In this document: positions 2,478 through 13,522 of the stretch, piece by piece
How positions within the stretch are numbered: the first letter of the stretch is position 1
Layout: the number at the start of each line of letters is the position of its first letter
Source of the DNA: a virus
Taxonomy: Duplodnaviria > Heunggongvirae > Uroviricota > Caudoviricetes
Virus record (IMG/VR): IMGVR_UViG_2529292758_000013
Length of the DNA stretch: 37,938 nucleotides
Reading direction: 5' to 3' (one strand)
Made by a program: the position numbers and the translations under genes
Notes under the pieces: generated by a model
Told to the model about the DNA's origin: nothing
What the model saw: only the letters and a program-made list of their open reading frames with translations
Databases searched by the model: none

Positions 2478-2660
2478 TTATTTGATGCATGTTTTTTTGG
2501 ATTTACTGATGGTTCCATCATTGCAAACAAATTTTCCATCAGAGGTACAGTGAGAGACACCTCCCTTTTTCCCAGAACAAGGATAATTTTTAGCATAGGT
2601 AGTTAGTGGGTTTAATAACAAAGAGCATGATAAAACCACAAAAAAAAACTTACCAAGCAT
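2478..2660 (-). CDS. Small secreted Cys-rich protein (60 aa) with predicted signal peptide, co-oriented with and 14 bp upstream of the KAP NTPase
   Basis: Hydrophobic N-terminus ([23 protein letters not shown]) followed by a 37-aa mature part with 4 Cys; strong SD GGAGGA 4 nt before ATG at 2660. Confidence 0.55.
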
Positions 2661-2675: not shown

Positions 2676-3332
2676 TTATCTAACATACTTAACTGTTAAG
2701 CTTATAATTTTTCCAATTATTTCAACATCTTCTATCTTGCACTCGAAGGCTCTGTTTCCACCTTCAACGAAAATTCTTCCACCGGGTAAACGAGTGATGT
2801 CGCGGATTGTTATTTCGCCATCAATACTTATTACCCATTTACCATCACGTATATCATCAAATTCTTTATCACAAATAAATTCAGAATTGTTATCTGTGAT
2901 GACAAAAGGTTTTTTAAACGTAGAGGGTAGAAATCCCTTATCAAAAATATAAAAACCGTCTTCCTGCAATGCTCCATCAGACAATAAATATTTTACTACT
3001 TCTATAGTATTTGTATTTGCTGATGCTTGCTTTGAACCATGCCCTGTTGTTAGCCAATTAAGCGAGGTACCCGTTTCAAGGGCGCACTGGATTACCCAAT
3101 CTGCCGGAAAAATATCACGCATATAACGCGTTGCCATGGTGCTCTTAGAAACACCTAAATGATCACAGAGAGCCTGACGGGTACCGAACCCGTATGCTTC
3201 AACCAAACGTTCTATGGCTTTCTTACCGCCGCTATTGAAATCCACAAATCCTCCAAAGAAATCCAAAATTCGTTGACAGATTCCAAAAGCGATCTTAAAG
3301 TTGAACCAGAAGTCTTCTTTTGGAGCCTTCAC
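2676..3332 (-). CDS. cI: Phage immunity repressor, 186 CI-like (start codon uncertain, true start probably downstream of 3332)
   Basis: HTH-like segment (ALCDHLGVSKSTMATRYMRD...CALETGTSLNWLTTGHG) resembling the 186 CI N-terminal domain from memory; sits between int cargo and the Apl/CII operon on the opposite strand. Confidence 0.7.
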   Translation of the reverse strand: MKAPKEDFWFNFKIAFGICQRILDFFGGFVDFNSGGKKAIERLVEAYGFGTRQALCDHLGVSKSTMATRYMRDIFPADWVIQCALETGTSLNWLTTGHGSKQASANTNTIEVVKYLLSDGALQEDGFYIFDKGFLPSTFKKPFVITDNNSEFICDKEFDDIRDGKWVISIDGEITIRDITRLPGGRIFVEGGNRAFECKIEDVEIIGKIISLTVKYVR

Positions 3333-3390: not shown

Positions 3391-3594
3391 ATGACACCTA
3401 ACATTTCAATTACTCTGAATACACCACATGTCACAATCGAACGTTATAGCGAACTGACTGGCCTTTCTATTGATACGATTAACGACATGTTGGCTGATGG
3501 CCGACTACCTCGTCATCGTCTTCGTAAAGACAAAAAACGTGAAAAGGTAATGATTAACCTGGCTGCTCTGACTGTTGATGCTTTGTCTGCTTAA
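3391..3594 (+). CDS. apl: Small HTH protein, Apl/Cox-like (first gene of the early lytic operon)
   Basis: 67-aa ORF with SD GAAGGA 9 nt upstream; HTH-like [25 protein letters not shown]; position immediately upstream of cII. Confidence 0.55.
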
Positions 3595-3658
3595 TAGACG
3601 TCTATTTTCGCAATAAGACGCTGAGTTCGATTTTGCGATAAGTTCGGAATTGAAAACC

Positions 3659-4168
3659 ATGTTTGATTACCAAGTTTCCAAACATCCACATTTTGATGAA
3701 GCCTGTCGTGCATTCGCACTGCGCCACAACCTGGTGCAGCTGGCAGGACGTGCAGGAATGAATGTGCAGATTCTGCGAAACAAGTTGAACCCTGCTCAAC
3801 CTCATTTATTAACCGCACCAGAAATTTGGCTGCTTACCGATCTGACTGAAGATTCGACGCTGGTAGATGGCTTTCTGGCTCAGATTCACTGTCTGCCATG
3901 TGTACCGATTAATGAGGTAGCAAAAGAGAAACTGCCACATTACGTCATGAGTGCAACCGCAGAGATCGGACGTGTTGCTGCAGGTGCGGTATCTGGCGAT
4001 GTAAAAACCAGTGCAGGTCGTCGTGATGCTATCAGCAGCATTAACTCTGTAACACGACTGATGGCGCTGGCTGCTGTTTCATTGCAGGCCCGTTTACAGG
4101 CTAATCCTGCGATGGCGAGTGCAGTTGATACCGTGACTGGCCTCGGTGCTTCATTCGGTTTGCTGTGA
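3659..4168 (+). CDS. cII: Phage 186-type CII regulatory protein
   Basis: Translation [24 protein letters not shown]...[24 protein letters not shown] matches the 186 CII protein as I recall it; ATG at 3659 (an in-frame TTG at 3650 is an alternative). Confidence 0.8.
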
Positions 4169-4175
4169 GGTGCTT

Positions 4176-4409
4176 ATGCTGACGAAAGAACCATCATTTG
4201 CATCGCTGCTGGTAAAACAAAGTCCGGCAATGCACTACGGTCACGGCTGGATTTATTTACCTTGTGGGAAAAAGTGGCATCCAAGTTTTGAATTACAACC
4301 CCGGCAACAGGCTTACCGGGGAAGAAATAAAAAGCGATTCCTACAAAGATTTATGGTTAACGTGGCAAACAACCTGCGAACCAAGCGAAAAGTTTTTCTT
4401 GGAAGCTGA
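4176..4409 (+). CDS. Hypothetical early protein (77 aa); its N-terminal segment is duplicated at 4996-5055
   Basis: SD GAGGTG 3 nt before ATG 4176, directly after the cII stop; C-terminal part overlaps the reverse-strand ORF 4357-4815. Confidence 0.4.
   Translation: MLTKEPSFASLLVKQSPAMHYGHGWIYLPCGKKWHPSFELQPRQQAYRGRNKKRFLQRFMVNVANNLRTKRKVFLGS
4193..4252. repeat. 60-bp direct repeat, copy 1 (59/60 identical to 4996-5055)
   Basis: ATCATTTGCATCGCTGCTGGTAAAACAAAG[T/C]CCGGCAATGCACTACGGTCACGGCTGGAT read at both positions. Confidence 0.9.
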
Positions 4410-4815
4410 GGTTTACATCGTCAACCCGACCACAGGCAATAGCAGCTCTTTTGTAGGCAGGGTTTAACAAAGATCCGAATGTTGTGGAGTCAGAGTGATG
4501 CAAAGCTTTCAATTTTTGTGCAATGAACTGTGGAGACAATTCATCCTCGGCGTAAAGCAACTCACCATATTGTCGGCTTTGTACGCTTGCTCGTTCCGCA
4601 ATAATAGCTGGTTGCCATACAAGTTGGATTGTTGCGATTACAACAACAGGAAAAGCGAACAACCATTCCAGACCTGTATTAGCAAATACAGCTGTTCCGC
4701 TTATAAGTTGGATTGCTGTCATTAATTTATCAGCTCGACCATGGAACGTTGCTGTCATTAGTTCAAGGTAATAACAGTAGTGTAATTGGAAGTATTCGGA
4801 GCTTTGTTTAGTCAT
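4357..4815 (-). CDS. Hypothetical protein with a hydrophobic (probably membrane) segment; reverse-strand cargo inside the early region
   Basis: 152-aa ORF on the opposite strand to the early operon; hydrophobic stretch LISGTAVFANTGLEWLFAFPVVVIATIQLVW; bounded by the 60-bp direct repeats. Confidence 0.45.
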   Translation of the reverse strand: MTKQSSEYFQLHYCYYLELMTATFHGRADKLMTAIQLISGTAVFANTGLEWLFAFPVVVIATIQLVWQPAIIAERASVQSRQYGELLYAEDELSPQFIAQKLKALHHSDSTTFGSLLNPAYKRAAIACGRVDDVNLSFQEKLFAWFAGCLPR

Positions 4816-4824
4816 GCCGGATTC

Positions 4825-4905
4825 CTATTTCTTCTCTTGCCCCGGTTCAGGCTGAGGTGCTGGAGCCGGGCGAGGGAGTACATGAAAGTTGTCTGTTTCT
4901 GACAT
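4825..4905 (-). CDS. Possible 26-aa Pro-rich peptide (MSETDNFHVLPRPAPAPQPEPGQEKK) immediately upstream of the 152-aa reverse-strand ORF
   Basis: ATG at 4903-4905 preceded on the minus strand by AAAGGAGAAAA; stop at 4825-4827; 9 bp before the next reverse-strand start. Confidence 0.25.
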   Translation of the reverse strand: MSETDNFHVLPRPAPAPQPEPGQEKK

Positions 4906-4995
4906 CAGTTTTCTCCTTTGAGGGGTAGATGATTGTTAGCACAAATAGTCTACCACTGAGGCACGCGCCGGGCGTGTAGAAAAATTCCCGGCACA

Positions 4996-5055
4996 ATCAT
5001 TTGCATCGCTGCTGGTAAAACAAAGCCCGGCAATGCACTACGGTCACGGCTGGAT
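4996..5055. repeat. 60-bp direct repeat, copy 2
   Basis: See copy 1; the two copies bracket the reverse-strand cassette 4357-4905. Confidence 0.9.
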
Positions 5056-5275
5056 CATGGGTGAGGATGGTAAACGCTGGCATCCATGTTATTCACAAGA
5101 TGAATTGCTGTCTGAAGTGACCACGAGGAAACGGAGAAAGTCCAAATGTATGCGGCAGAAAGTGAAGTGGTTTATCAGTTTCGTTACAGAGGGGATAGTT
5201 ATTCAGTACCTGAAGATGATTTGCTCTGTTGTTATCCGTCGTTGTCGGGCGATGGCAGTTACTTTTTCACACTAA
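5033..5275 (+). other. Diverged second copy of the gene begun at 4176 (shares MHYGHGWI...GK[KR]WHP); lacks an obvious RBS, coding status uncertain
   Basis: Upstream in-frame stop at 4946-4948 and no SD before ATG 5033; overlaps the 5146-5370 ORF in another frame. Confidence 0.3.
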
Positions 5276-5370
5276 AGGATGGGACGTTTTTACGGGGAGA
5301 GCAGGTTAAAGAGACGGTACGAAAAAATGTATCTCCCCTTGAGCGTTACCGTAAGAACAAAGAACGATAG
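5146..5370 (+). CDS. Hypothetical early protein (74 aa)
   Basis: ORF with SD-like GGAGAAAG upstream of ATG 5146; same orientation as the early operon. Confidence 0.4.
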   Translation: MYAAESEVVYQFRYRGDSYSVPEDDLLCCYPSLSGDGSYFFTLKDGTFLRGEQVKETVRKNVSPLERYRKNKER

Positions 5371-5392
5371 TTGCGTTTTGGGGATATGAATT

Positions 5393-5734
5393 ATGGCAAT
5401 TAATGGCGCTGCGGCGACTGTTCCATTAAGCCCCGGTGAACGCCTGAATGGACTTAATCACATTGCGGAATTAAGAGCGAAAGTTTTTGGCCTGAATATT
5501 GAGTCAGAGCTTGAGCGGTTTATTAAAGATATGCGTGATCCACGGGATATCAATAATGAACAAAATAAACGGGCACTGGCTGCCATATTCTTTATGGCAA
5601 AAATTCCAGCTGAACGTCATAGCATCAGCATTAATGAGCTGACCACTGACGAAAAGCGGGAGCTGATTAAAGCAATGAATCATTTTCGTGCAGTGGTGAG
5701 CTTATTTCCCAGACGGCTAACCATGCCGAATTAA
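5393..5734 (+). CDS. Hypothetical early protein (113 aa)
   Basis: ORF in early-operon orientation between cII and the replication gene; no motif recognised. Confidence 0.5.
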   Translation: MAINGAAATVPLSPGERLNGLNHIAELRAKVFGLNIESELERFIKDMRDPRDINNEQNKRALAAIFFMAKIPAERHSISINELTTDEKRELIKAMNHFRAVVSLFPRRLTMPN

Positions 5735-5801
5735 CCAACTAATGAAATTCATGGCGTAAACCCGCCAGGCATCCCTTTATCTAAATTCAGGAGAATTGAT
5801 T

Positions 5802-10325: not shown

Positions 10326-10434
10326 ATTTACCAATAATAACCTTACAATGTACACTACCTATTGAATTTTCCATAGTTGGCCTTTGGCTCTACTTACCAT
10401 CTATGTTTATGTATTTTATCAAAATGGACTAAAA

Positions 10435-12327
10435 ATGCACAATACGTACATCAAAGACTATATAGAATATTACCTTAGCCTTAAAACTGAACCTCAATAC
10501 GCCATTATGCTTAAAGGTGCTTGGGGATCAGGTAAAACTTGGTTCATTGAACGAGTTCTTGAAGAATATAAGCAAAAGCATTCAGAGTTCAAATTTCTTA
10601 AAGTGAGTTTGTATGGCGTCAACTCTATTGAGCAGATTGAAGATGAGTTCTATCGTCAACTTCATCCTATTCTATCAAACAAAGCCCTTATCTTTGGTGC
10701 AAATGTACTAAAAAATACGCTTAAGGCTACTTTCAAGATCGATTTCAATGGCGATAATAAGTCTGACGTAGATGTCAATGCCAGTGTCCCCACTATTAAT
10801 CTTAGCGACTTTAGCAGAGAACCAGATGGTTTTGTGCTGGTCTTTGATGATATCGAGAGAGCTGGTATAGATTTACCAATCTTATTTGGATATATAAATC
10901 ACTTTGTAGAAGTAAACGGATACAAAGCGATCCTGGTTGCCAATGAAGAAGAAATAATCAACAGAGAAAAGCGAATAAATAATGATGATGAGAAATCTAG
11001 CAGTGAATACATAAGAACAAAAGAAAAGCTTGTAGGTAAAACATTTGAAGTAACGTCAGATTTACATAGTGCTTGTAATATTTTCTTGGGCGTAATTAGT
11101 AGTTTACACGTAGCTAATATATTTAAAGAAGATATGCAGACCATAGAACACCTCTATGTGTCGGCGAAATATAATAATCTAAGACATTTGAGGCAGTTCT
11201 TTCTTGATGTACAACGCATCATTTCCCTTTTGGGAGATAAATATGTCAGCAACGACGATTTTATGAAAGTATTTTTCCAGCAGTTATTAATTTTCTCGAT
11301 GGAGTACCGGGGAGGGAACCTTAACTACGAGGATTTCAATTCAATCGGCAATGTAAATTATAGTATGTTTTTAGATAAAGGGCGTGCCAAAACTAAGTAT
11401 GATATGATCGTCGAGAAATATTCATCACCTGTATTAACCGAGACGTTACTGGATGGTGCGTACTGGAGAGAGCTAATCTGTGATGGAAAGGTAACGCATG
11501 ATCTTCTCGCTCAGCTGGATATTACGCGATTTTTTAGAAGCACCGATGCCCAAGCATGGGAGTATTTGTGGAACTATCGAGAACTTAATGAAACTATTCT
11601 TAATGAACAGTACGCCATTGCCAAGGATAATCTATTTTCAGGTAAGATCACTTCCTTAGGTGAACTCCTGATGACCGCGAGTATTTTGCTGGCATTGGCG
11701 AAAGAAGGTTTAACCACAGATGCTGTTGATGACATTATAAATGAGACAAAACATCATATAGATATTTATTACAATGGATTAGGACCTGAAGATATACATC
11801 AGGAGTATGCGCAAAGACATTATAATGAGTTAATGGCATGGCGTGGCTTTGGTTTTCTTGACAGGGATAGCGATGAATTCAAACTCATTATTGAGCATAT
11901 TAAGATAGCGCAGAAGAAACGGTTTGATGAATCAATTCCGGAGTTTGCATTGAAGTTCAGCGATGAGTTGCAAAGAGGAAATTTATCGTTTGTATCTGAA
12001 TTGTGTCATTCTAATAATAGGCAGCTAAATCTTCATAACGTGCCTTTTTTACACTTGGTTTCTCCTGAAGTTTTCATTGAAAGCTATAGGAAACTTGACC
12101 CAATCATCATGAGGAAACTGGCATTTAGCTTGAGGGATCGTTATTCTGATAGGGATGCCAGAACCAGACTGACCGAAGAATACAACTGGTTGATTAGCCT
12201 AAAAGAGATAGCTGTAGATTTCACTCAAAACGCAGCCAATAACTCCTTTCAGGTTTTTCATGTAAAGTTTTTTATTGACTATGCACTAACTAATGCAATC
12301 AAATTATTTACTGAGGGAACTGATTAA
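10435..12327 (+). CDS. KAP-like P-loop NTPase, second divergent copy (630 aa from ATG 10435; an in-frame TTG at 10384 is possible)
   Basis: Walker A GAWGSGKT and Walker B-like VLVFDDIER in a layout parallel to the 1133-2464 protein; AT-rich; followed by a GC-rich hairpin terminator. Confidence 0.7.
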   Translation: MHNTYIKDYIEYYLSLKTEPQYAIMLKGAWGSGKTWFIERVLEEYKQKHSEFKFLKVSLYGVNSIEQIEDEFYRQLHPILSNKALIFGANVLKNTLKATFKIDFNGDNKSDVDVNASVPTINLSDFSREPDGFVLVFDDIERAGIDLPILFGYINHFVEVNGYKAILVANEEEIINREKRINNDDEKSSSEYIRTKEKLVGKTFEVTSDLHSACNIFLGVISSLHVANIFKEDMQTIEHLYVSAKYNNLRHLRQFFLDVQRIISLLGDKYVSNDDFMKVFFQQLLIFSMEYRGGNLNYEDFNSIGNVNYSMFLDKGRAKTKYDMIVEKYSSPVLTETLLDGAYWRELICDGKVTHDLLAQLDITRFFRSTDAQAWEYLWNYRELNETILNEQYAIAKDNLFSGKITSLGELLMTASILLALAKEGLTTDAVDDIINETKHHIDIYYNGLGPEDIHQEYAQRHYNELMAWRGFGFLDRDSDEFKLIIEHIKIAQKKRFDESIPEFALKFSDELQRGNLSFVSELCHSNNRQLNLHNVPFLHLVSPEVFIESYRKLDPIIMRKLAFSLRDRYSDRDARTRLTEEYNWLISLKEIAVDFTQNAANNSFQVFHVKFFIDYALTNAIKLFTEGTD

Positions 12328-12850: not shown

Positions 12851-13522
12851 ATGGCTTTCAGAGCGGAAGAAGCAGCAGCATCGAATTTCGAAAATGCTTA
12901 CAGATATCTAGTTCCACAAGGTTCAAATCAGGAGATGCGTTCGAAAGTTAGGGCGAAGCTCAAAGAAATTGTTGAAGAATGTGGGCCAGTAGTGGATGGG
13001 TATCCAGCATGGCATCCTTTTTTGCTGGAAAGAGATAAAGCTATTTGGGCGCCTATGACTCCCAATAATACTCCTAGCTTTAAATACCTGGACCACACGG
13101 TCTATTTCAGGAACGGCATTCTTACCTGTCCTTATGGTCATGGGGTTGATGAATTTATAGCTGGTATAAAACGTCTAAAGCACACGGATGCCCATTTCTC
13201 TATTGAGAAGATTGATGACGTTGTGCTTTATAATGACAACGCCGTCCCGTTGTTAATAAAATGCCATTGGCTTATTTCGGAAGATATGGAAGAGGATGGC
13301 ACCATTCCAGCAAAAGCAGCAATTGGATTGATGCTTGAAAGCGAGGTTCCTAACTGGCGGCATGCAGTTTATTGTGAAAATTGGGAAGATATGCGCGGGC
13401 AGTTGATGGGATATCCGCACGGTGCCAGATCATCTCTATTTGTTAATCAGCAGACAGGACAGAAAATGAAAAACTTCTGGAATCAGCTGATTAAGACCGG
13501 AATTCTTGGGGAAGAGCGATAA
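12851..13522 (+). CDS. Hypothetical protein (223 aa), cargo gene between cos and the portal gene
   Basis: Uninterrupted ORF with candidate promoter TTGATA-N18-TATATT at 12809-12838; no motif recognised; hairpin after the stop. Confidence 0.55.
   Translation: MAFRAEEAAASNFENAYRYLVPQGSNQEMRSKVRAKLKEIVEECGPVVDGYPAWHPFLLERDKAIWAPMTPNNTPSFKYLDHTVYFRNGILTCPYGHGVDEFIAGIKRLKHTDAHFSIEKIDDVVLYNDNAVPLLIKCHWLISEDMEEDGTIPAKAAIGLMLESEVPNWRHAVYCENWEDMRGQLMGYPHGARSSLFVNQQTGQKMKNFWNQLIKTGILGEER

Follow-up and report, generated by a model that had tools for sequence, protein, structure and literature searches.

The 37,938-nucleotide (nt) stretch analyzed here (the window; IMG/VR virus record IMGVR_UViG_2529292758_000013) is a 186-like (Peduoviridae) prophage of Escherichia coli, and matches prophages in E. 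coli NGF-1, NC101 and others at 100% identity. Downstream of cII, between two 60-nt direct repeats, it carries a reverse-strand cassette that consists of a gene for a 26-amino-acid (aa) peptide followed by a gene for a 152-aa predicted inner-membrane protein (Table 1). The explanation that we consider best, and moderately probable as a whole, is that the repeats are the scar of a crossover between phages and that the cassette is an autonomous unit expressed in the lysogen, in which the peptide controls a SLATT-type effector for exclusion or abortive infection.

We found that the repeat is real and lies in related coding sequences, as the initial annotation had claimed. A repeat search aligned 4190-4252 with 4993-5055 (63 nt, 97% identity, spacing 803), and a base-by-base reading confirmed 60 nt with a single mismatch (T4223 versus C5026). 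A match of this length and identity is far beyond chance in 38 kb. Just 5' of the repeat, copy 1 has ACCA and copy 2 has ACAA. Both copies are in frame and encode SFASLLVKQSPAMHYGHGWI. Past the repeat the two frames diverge but stay recognizably related: positions 4265-4287 and 5068-5090, in the same register, are 78% alike, the related parts include a GK[KR]WHP segment, and BLASTP aligned the two protein copies with 25/32 identical residues (E 2e-18).

The repeated gene is fil. Copy 1 scored 83.6 bits and copy 2 77.1 bits against Pfam PF10893 (Phage_186_Fil), for which the gathering cut-off is 25 bits. The order cI, apl, cII, fil and the Fil family membership are as in phage 186; this comparison is drawn from the 186 literature, in which fil follows cII. 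Only copy 1 is a complete gene. Its product, of 77 aa (fil77), matches PF10893 model positions 1-51 of 56 with residues 5-58, matches phrog_816 ("cell division inhibitor") over profile positions 1-64 of 66, and is collinear with STM2735 of phage Fels-2. The final 53 nt of fil77 overlap the 3' end of the 152-aa gene convergently. Copy 2 belongs to a 98-aa type (fil98) but lacks codons 1-5, the ATG and the ribosome-binding site. It matches phrog_32377 (also "cell division inhibitor") over profile positions 6-97 of 98 and is 97.4% identical to the intact fil of Escherichia phage vB_EcoM-813R9. An in-frame ATG in copy 2, at 5033, has no obvious ribosome-binding site; PGAP starts an 80-aa "Fil family protein" there.

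Relatives of the window have three arrangements of this region. Type N has no cassette (cII - fil98 - DUF5347) and is found in vB_EcoM-813R9 and Klebsiella phage 4LV2017, which align to window positions 3624-4252 and 4993-5800 at 94-97%. A comparison of the region downstream of cII had been proposed as the way to find the uninterrupted ancestral gene, and the uninterrupted fil98 is indeed present in these phages. Type F has the cassette (cII - fil77 - reverse cassette - DUF5347) and, unlike the window, a single fil and no repeat. Examples are Fels-2, whose STM2735/STM2733.1 region carries the window's cassette (82% nucleotide identity over 3658-4996), and E. coli GPEC60-12-649 (95%). Type W is the hybrid seen in the window. 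The cassette is present in 40/5,426 complete E. coli genomes, 38 with type W (at least 99% identity) and 2 with type F.

The right junction of the hybrid is sharp. The sequence reads ...GGCACAA/CTTCAAATAGG... in type F (Fels-2 and locus L005), ...GGCACAA/TCATTTGC... in the window, and ...GAACCA/TCATTTGC... in the intact fil. From 4996 (TCATTTG...) the window continues with codon 6 of the resident fil allele. On the left side, cII and the 5' end of fil are common to all three types. Microhomology at the right junction is imperfect and at most 4 nt, and we therefore regard the join as illegitimate. Based on the three arrangements in relatives, we conclude that the repeat is a scar of illegitimate recombination and not part of the cassette. 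Each fil allele has one copy of the 60 nt, which are the strongly conserved 5' end of the gene and do not indicate a transposition. A single illegitimate crossover between two related phages, a Fels-2-type donor and an 813R9-type phage, explains the tandem fil alleles: in it, codon 6 of the resident fil98 was joined to the edge of the donor's cassette (...GGCACAA). Recombination between the 60-nt copies would be expected to delete 803 bp (the cassette and the fil77 tail) and to regenerate an intact fil98.

These results change the initial view that the cassette was gained by recombination within a resident early gene, leaving a partial duplication. The recombination and the partial duplication stand. 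Insertion into the middle of one gene does not, as the left copy is a complete, different fil allele that accompanies the cassette in Fels-2 and other phages, and only the right copy is a truncated resident allele. Nor do the repeats belong to the cassette, which follows cII or fil without any repeat in Fels-2, GPEC60-12-649, Kosakonia, Yersinia, Hafnia and Pectobacterium. Repeat-free relatives were what the initial annotation had said would refute its view, and they do refute the idea that repeats and cassette belong together. The repeat itself is an ordinary product of mosaic recombination between phage alleles, and is of use as a dated, precise example of the transfer of an accessory gene unit ("moron") between phages.

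The tail of fil98 also overlaps a second reading frame. A 74-aa open reading frame (ORF) at 5146-5370 (+), with a GGAG ribosome-binding site and a match to phrog_4312 (E 2e-52), has no PGAP annotation and overlaps the last ~43 codons of the 98-aa fil frame (to 5275). Of the substitutions relative to two relatives, 4/5 and 4/6 fall at the third codon position of the 74-aa ORF, which is the second position of fil, and because of this the 74-aa ORF seems to be the selected frame.

We found that the 26-aa ORF is a conserved gene. The initial annotation had placed a 152-aa ORF and a "possible" peptide on the reverse strand between the repeats; both ORFs are there, and they form a genuine two-gene unit. 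The 26-aa ORF is intact in 79/80 related loci, the exception having a two-base change in a run of A, and Pectobacterium has an in-frame two-codon insertion. Variable columns are concentrated at third codon positions (10/7/24 for positions one, two and three). The ratio of nonsynonymous to synonymous polymorphism (pN/pS) is 0.08-0.28, comparable to that of the 152-aa gene (0.09-0.30). Judged by these patterns of substitution, purifying selection is shown to act on both cassette genes. Across 47 distinct upstream regions that were aligned, the peptide's ribosome-binding site is conserved. The TAG that ends the peptide gene lies 9 nt before the ATG of the 152-aa gene and overlaps that gene's ribosome-binding site (AGGA); the two genes are probably translationally coupled. 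The motif DFH[VI]L[HP][RK]PAP (DNFHVLPRPAPAP in the window; ...TEKFHRVHKPAPAP... and ...NDFHILHKPAPP... in two distant homologues) recurs upstream of homologues whose large proteins are just 36-37% identical. Because the motif is kept at this distance, the peptide is a conserved partner and not an accident of the upstream sequence. The ORF has no PGAP annotation and none in the Fels-2 record.

We found that the 152-aa protein belongs to a family with a weak but repeated resemblance to SLATT proteins. Its close relatives are 67-99% identical, all of 152 aa, and occur only in Enterobacterales. A profile search of 1.84 billion cluster representatives found 170 relatives at E<=0.001, 91 of them at E<=1e-10; with few exceptions they are stand-alone proteins of 150-175 aa, and none has a Pfam domain apart from single matches (one member to SLATT_4, one to PycTM). 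A profile search of a 5.8-billion-protein collection did not reach annotated relatives. Among 90 family members, 32 matched NCBIfam NF033632 (SLATT_4; best E 2.2e-5) and 10 matched SLATT_1. With the PADLOC models, 10/90 matched "2TM effector" and 5/90 matched RTasSLATT (reverse transcriptase-associated SLATT). The family is uncharacterized and has no Pfam family of its own.

The predicted structure is consistent with this resemblance. An AlphaFold2 model made from a 90-sequence alignment reached a predicted local distance difference test score (pLDDT) of 93.2 and a predicted TM-score (pTM) of 0.85. (An earlier model from 11 close sequences had a pLDDT of 67, and its fold search was uninformative.) In the later model, helices 6-43, 50-67 and 69-88 form a long hairpin that is followed by three short C-terminal helices. 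The hydrophobic stretch covers residues 31-75, and the protein is modeled as a helical hairpin of two transmembrane segments (~31-48 and ~49-68) with cytoplasmic helices on either side. Two adjacent transmembrane helices in a hairpin, with conserved cytoplasmic helices beside them, are characteristic of SLATT proteins, and the model has this arrangement. Arg and Lys flank both hairpin ends in the family alignment, which suggests that both termini are cytoplasmic. Conserved polar residues (Q36, S39, T41, T62 and Q64) lie in the membrane hairpin. In a Foldseek search of the BFVD viral models, 9 of the top 20 matches were annotated as SLATT, with probabilities of 0.30-0.96 (seven at 0.69 or above) and query-normalized TM-scores of 0.35-0.55. 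With moderate confidence, we assign the family to the SLATT superfamily, as a branch that has diverged and stands alone.

SLATT proteins are viewed as suicide effectors that are predicted to form pores (10.64898/2026.04.29.721553), and are described as such effectors of cyclic-oligonucleotide-based anti-phage signaling systems (CBASS) and of defense-associated reverse transcriptase (DRT) systems; SLATT_4 is the predicted effector of type I CBASS and SLATT_5 that of DRT10 (10.64898/2026.04.29.721553; PMC11381338). SLATT_4 (PF18186) and SLATT_5 (DRT10/UG17) have a two-transmembrane hairpin amid cytoplasmic helices, as does the model of the 152-aa protein. Whereas SLATT effectors normally have an enzyme or signal partner, the constant partner of the window's family is a hydrophilic or proline-rich peptide of 17-67 aa. 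Also unlike known SLATT systems, the unit in the window is phage-borne and antisense within lytic operons.

A conserved element lies at the 5' edge of the cassette and contains a candidate extended -10 and two overlapping dyads, the loop of dyad B being the 3' arm of dyad A. Conservation among relatives starts exactly at the dyad; the flanks beyond it fall into at least six unrelated classes. In relatives, the spacer of dyad A is N13 or N14, and TGGTAnnnT occurs 6-8 nt past the dyads. The invariant bases of this pattern are those that define an extended -10 (TG, T-12, A-11, T-7), and positions -10 to -8 vary. The composite pattern had 0 chance matches in 100 shuffles. The dyad arms covary: in 18 distinct copies, 95.5% of cells are paired and 5/11 pairs have changed on both sides (for example, GCCGAG/CTCGGC, ACCGGG/CCCGGT, and CACG/CGTG versus CATG/CATG). 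None of 500 shuffles reached this level, and slid controls paired 23-43%. We infer from this sequence pattern that the element acts as a promoter. Hairpin B is followed by a T-rich tract in many copies, and on this ground we speculate that it may terminate or insulate transcription in the sense direction and that hairpin A may compete with it.

The element is not confined to the pair. It also heads unrelated small antisense cassettes, with a second copy in Pectobacterium loci (L012, 4506-4543), three copies in tandem in one viral contig (L095; 2474, 3067 and 3795) and two in another (L097; 10735 and 11620). It is upstream of a distant homologue in L091 (at 25), and is also found in L096, L098 and L100-L103. 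This sharing suggests that accessory genes of P2/186-like prophages have a regulatory device in common.

Other identities for the element were rejected. By eye, sigma-E, sigma-54, LexA-box and P2 late-promoter (TGT-N12-ACA) patterns were unfit or unconserved, and Rfam gave no match (E<=1) in 4000-5500. The dyad arms are 20 bp apart, like those of the CII-dependent promoter pE of 186, but their sequence is GCCGGG/CCCGGC and not ATGTTTG/CAAACAT. They are centered at about -29.5/-49.5 from the putative -10, versus -38/-58 for the half-sites of 186 pE (PMC6593788). A perfect inverted repeat of the latter kind (ATGTTTG-N13-CAAACAT) is present at 3659-3685 (+), at the very start of cII and inside its coding sequence, and has the sequence expected of a 186-type CII binding site for the establishment promoter pE. 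At the other end of the cassette, the terminator-like hairpin has a 9-pair stem and a weak T tail. It is kept in fil77-type relatives; in Fels-2 the tail is not U-rich.

The pair is found in temperate phages of several kinds. In close relatives, every context examined (Yersinia, Hafnia, Pectobacterium, Kosakonia, Salmonella, Klebsiella, Enterobacter and Citrobacter) is a 186-like prophage in which the cassette, in antisense orientation, comes immediately after cII or fil, and the repeat-free form, always antisense and straight after cII or fil, is present in six genera. In Yersinia and Hafnia the stop codon of the 152-aa gene abuts that of cII. The sampled contexts of distant relatives are temperate phages, in most of which the gene is antisense to its neighbors. 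They include a Mu-like prophage, another integrase-bearing prophage, lambdoid prophages (from Klebsiella oxytoca and Serratia, with the gene between those for the Q antiterminator and the holin), P2-like Yersinia phage vB_YenM_42.18 and Providencia phage PSTNGR2lys. In each distant context, a small ORF for a hydrophilic and usually proline-rich peptide precedes the large gene, with a gap of 2-13 nt to the ATG of the latter. This gap is 7-13 nt in nearly all sampled members (2 nt in L092 and 6 nt in L091).

Two records annotate a hypothetical coding sequence on the strand opposite the membrane-protein gene: STM2733.1 of Fels-2, on the + strand (L001, 2341-2745), and gp08 of the Yersinia phage (L104, 2812-3477). 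Both are probably mis-annotations. In Yersinia 186-like prophages with the cassette (L006 and L007, 7715-8459), genes for KwaA and KwaB (Kiwa defense) adjoin the integrase gene.

Based on these features, we suggest how the cassette might work. It would be an autonomous two-gene moron on the strand opposite the early lytic operon, its predicted parts being an extended -10 promoter with GC-rich dyads, a strongly translated 26-aa micro-protein and a 152-aa membrane protein. With pR silenced by CI in a lysogen, the promoter of the cassette would be free to drive leftward transcription. Once the prophage is induced, or after infection, pR would transcribe strongly in the convergent direction and so turn the cassette off. 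Interference between convergent promoters is described for pR and pE of 186 (PMC6593788); the proposed shut-off is likened to this interference, and the same logic could hold in lambdoid and Mu-like late operons. The membrane protein would be a SLATT-type pore or membrane-perturbing effector, the micro-protein would restrain or trigger it, and superinfecting phages would be excluded or their infection aborted. Exclusion was one of two roles that the initial annotation had raised, the other being that of a toxin-antitoxin-like module. Promoter activity, lysogen-specific expression, a role of the peptide and a defense function are all predicted properties of the cassette.

The cassette shares several features with known phage morons, which are accessory transcription units placed between genes of phage operons. 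Like them, it is present or absent among close relatives, is oriented opposite to the operon and has a promoter-like element of its own, and its lambdoid relatives are exactly in the Q-holin slot of lambdoid Q-S morons. In contrast to ordinary morons, the promoter element itself is conserved, portable, covarying and common to unrelated cassettes; the literature searched held no description of such a portable, covarying moron element. Lambda RexB, P22/lambda SieB and HK97 gp15 are small inner-membrane proteins that are expressed from prophages and act against superinfecting phages. The placement and orientation of the cassette suggest the same lifestyle, although its proteins have no sequence or fold match to these three. 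RexB has a sensor protein, RexA, whereas the partner in the window is a micro-peptide.

Several results weigh against a lysogen-expressed SLATT-type effector system. A literature search yielded no experimental or transcriptomic evidence of expression or function of the cassette, and nothing relevant on STM2734, STM2733.1, WP_000166365, or SLATT proteins with prophage small peptides. A sigma-70 consensus scan of 4100-5450 passed no promoter, and the promoter call is based only on the conserved TGnTAnnnT pattern. The 152-aa protein of the window matches no model in Pfam (E<=1), NCBIfam (E<=0.1) or PADLOC (E<=1). The SLATT_4 and SLATT_1 matches of family members, graded by E-value, are weak (mostly 0.001-0.1), and the E-values of the Foldseek matches to SLATT are 0.03-1.2. 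In ~15 sampled contexts there was no SMODS/CD-NTase, SLOG, TIR or reverse transcriptase partner. The 152-aa ORF is truncated in at least 2/80 loci (to 85 aa in L019 and 96 aa in L081), and can therefore be lost. As for the scar, a near-identical derivative minus the 803-bp unit was not found among the top matches listed.

A more far-reaching reading is tentative, and we think the balance is against it. The pair might be a minimal system of exclusion or anti-phage defense that has not been described before, in which a proline-rich micro-protein co-evolves with a stand-alone SLATT-like pore and gates it, no enzyme being involved. At least four phage architectures (186-like, P2-like, Mu-like and lambdoid) would carry the pair. 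In the P2/186-like ones it would be driven by a dedicated portable element, with an extended -10 and two covarying hairpins that exclude each other, which several unrelated morons share. As the pair is antisense in lytic operons, it would be active in the lysogen, and convergent transcription would silence it at induction. In CBASS and DRT immunity, the activation of SLATT effectors is still an open question (10.64898/2026.04.29.721553). If the reading is true, a SLATT-like protein whose sole partner has 26 residues would be the simplest system for studying gating. The cassette in any case defines an unannotated micro-protein gene and an uncharacterized protein family (170 cluster representatives).

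The pair might instead be a classical toxin-antitoxin or addiction module, in which the 152-aa protein is the toxin, the 26-aa peptide is a labile antitoxin, and the benefit is stabilization of the prophage rather than exclusion. The tight operon with the small gene first, the purifying selection on both genes and the co-inheritance of the pair across distant homologues would agree with this, and the polar residues in the hairpin would suit a membrane-damaging toxin. However, the cassette proteins matched no toxin-antitoxin or defense model. Known membrane toxins of such systems are small hydrophobic peptides with RNA antitoxins, and the size relation here is reversed. In L019 and L081 the large ORF is truncated and the small ORF intact, which by itself does not speak against addiction. 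The strictly phage-borne, antisense placement in lytic operons better fits a function in the lysogen phase, and we consider an addiction module unlikely.

We think it quite unlikely that the 26-aa ORF is a leader that sets translation of the 152-aa gene, for example by slow decoding of Pro codons, with a peptide that has no function itself. Such a leader would agree with the overlap of its stop codon with the downstream ribosome-binding site, with the gap of 7-13 nt in nearly all members, and with the proline-rich character of the peptides, some of which in relatives have PPP, PPPP, PPD or PPE motifs that depend on elongation factor P (EF-P). But the peptide of the window has no PP dipeptide, and the conserved part is the N-terminal D-F-H-[VI]-L-[HP]-[RK]-P-A-P, kept when the large proteins are 36-37% identical. 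The pN/pS of the peptide also equals that of the large protein, and the 152-aa gene has a ribosome-binding site of its own.

It is very unlikely that the pair serves development of its own phage, for example by modulating FtsH and RseP, membrane proteases that degrade 186 CII (PMC7708051), or by timing lysis. The cassette does follow cII directly in 186-like phages, and in lambdoid and Mu-like relatives the pair is beside or near lysis genes. It is, however, on the strand opposite cII and the lysis genes, and is therefore not co-transcribed with them. The cassette dyad is not a CII site; the window's own CII site is the one at 3659-3685. A related cII-fil region is present in ~1,240-1,310 of the 5,426 complete E. 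coli genomes, and ~97% of E. coli prophages with such a region (~1,240 genomes) lack the cassette, which must therefore be dispensable for the life cycle.

We reject the idea that the cassette is a transposon-like mobile element that inserted in fil and made a 60-bp target duplication. Direct repeats do bracket the 803-bp unit, but past the repeat the copies go on as diverged homologues rather than as halves of a single gene, and the left one is a whole fil allele, which matches the Pfam model up to position 51 of 56. Between the copies (4253-4995) there are neither genes for a transposase or integrase nor inverted repeats at the ends. In many phages the same cassette is free of repeats.

Table 1. 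Features of the cII-fil region of the window and of the cassette
Feature	Position	Strand	Basis or remark
CI repressor	2676-3332	-	
Apl/Cox-like gene	3391-3594		
cII	3650-4168		
fil allele 1	4176-4409	+	Complete 77-aa ORF; ribosome-binding site GAGGTG; start 8 nt past cII stop
Direct repeat copy 1	4193-4252	+	fil codons 6-26; one mismatch versus copy 2
Terminator-like hairpin	4299-4321	-	36 nt past stop of 152-aa gene, inside fil77 coding sequence; weak evidence
152-aa inner-membrane protein (predicted)	4357-4815	-	phrog_6315, E 4e-76; PGAP WP_000166365.1
26-aa hydrophilic, proline-rich micro-protein gene, MSETDNFHVLPRPAPAPQPEPGQEKK	4825-4905	-	ORF list; conservation
Ribosome-binding site AAGGAG of 26-aa ORF	4913-4918	-	7 nt before ATG; conserved in upstream alignment
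Promoter-proximal element, cassette 5' edge	4947-4992	-	Extended -10 and dyads A and B
Extended -10 (candidate), TGGTAGACT	4955-4947	-	
Dyad B, CACGC-N5-GCGTG	4976-4962	-	Overlaps dyad A
Dyad A, GCCGGG-N14-CCCGGC	Arms 4992-4987 and 4972-4967	-	
Right recombination junction	4993-4996		ACAA, last bases common with Fels-2-type arrangement
fil allele 2 (98-aa type), truncated	4996-5275	+	PF10893 and phrog_32377 matches
Direct repeat copy 2	4996-5055	+	One mismatch versus copy 1
DUF5347 gene	5393-5734		

Beyond the DUF5347 gene, the window continues with a TraR/DksA-type gene, a Dam methylase gene and a gpA-type replication gene. Two further ORFs had no family match: a 60-aa ORF at 2478-2660 (-), next to cI, with a hydrophobic N-terminus and several cysteines (hypothetical in PGAP), and a 223-aa ORF at 12851-13522 (+). 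Each is adjacent to a gene for a KAP-family P-loop NTPase. The first of these NTPases (1133-2464, -), between the integrase gene and cI, matches the PADLOC candidate defense family PDC-S20 (E 2e-171) and has weaker similarity to PifA and QatA. The second (10384-12327, +; 647 aa) matches PADLOC candidate PDC-S49 (E 1e-160) and lies between the replication gene and the portal-side late genes, which is the position of the accessory genes tin and old in P2.

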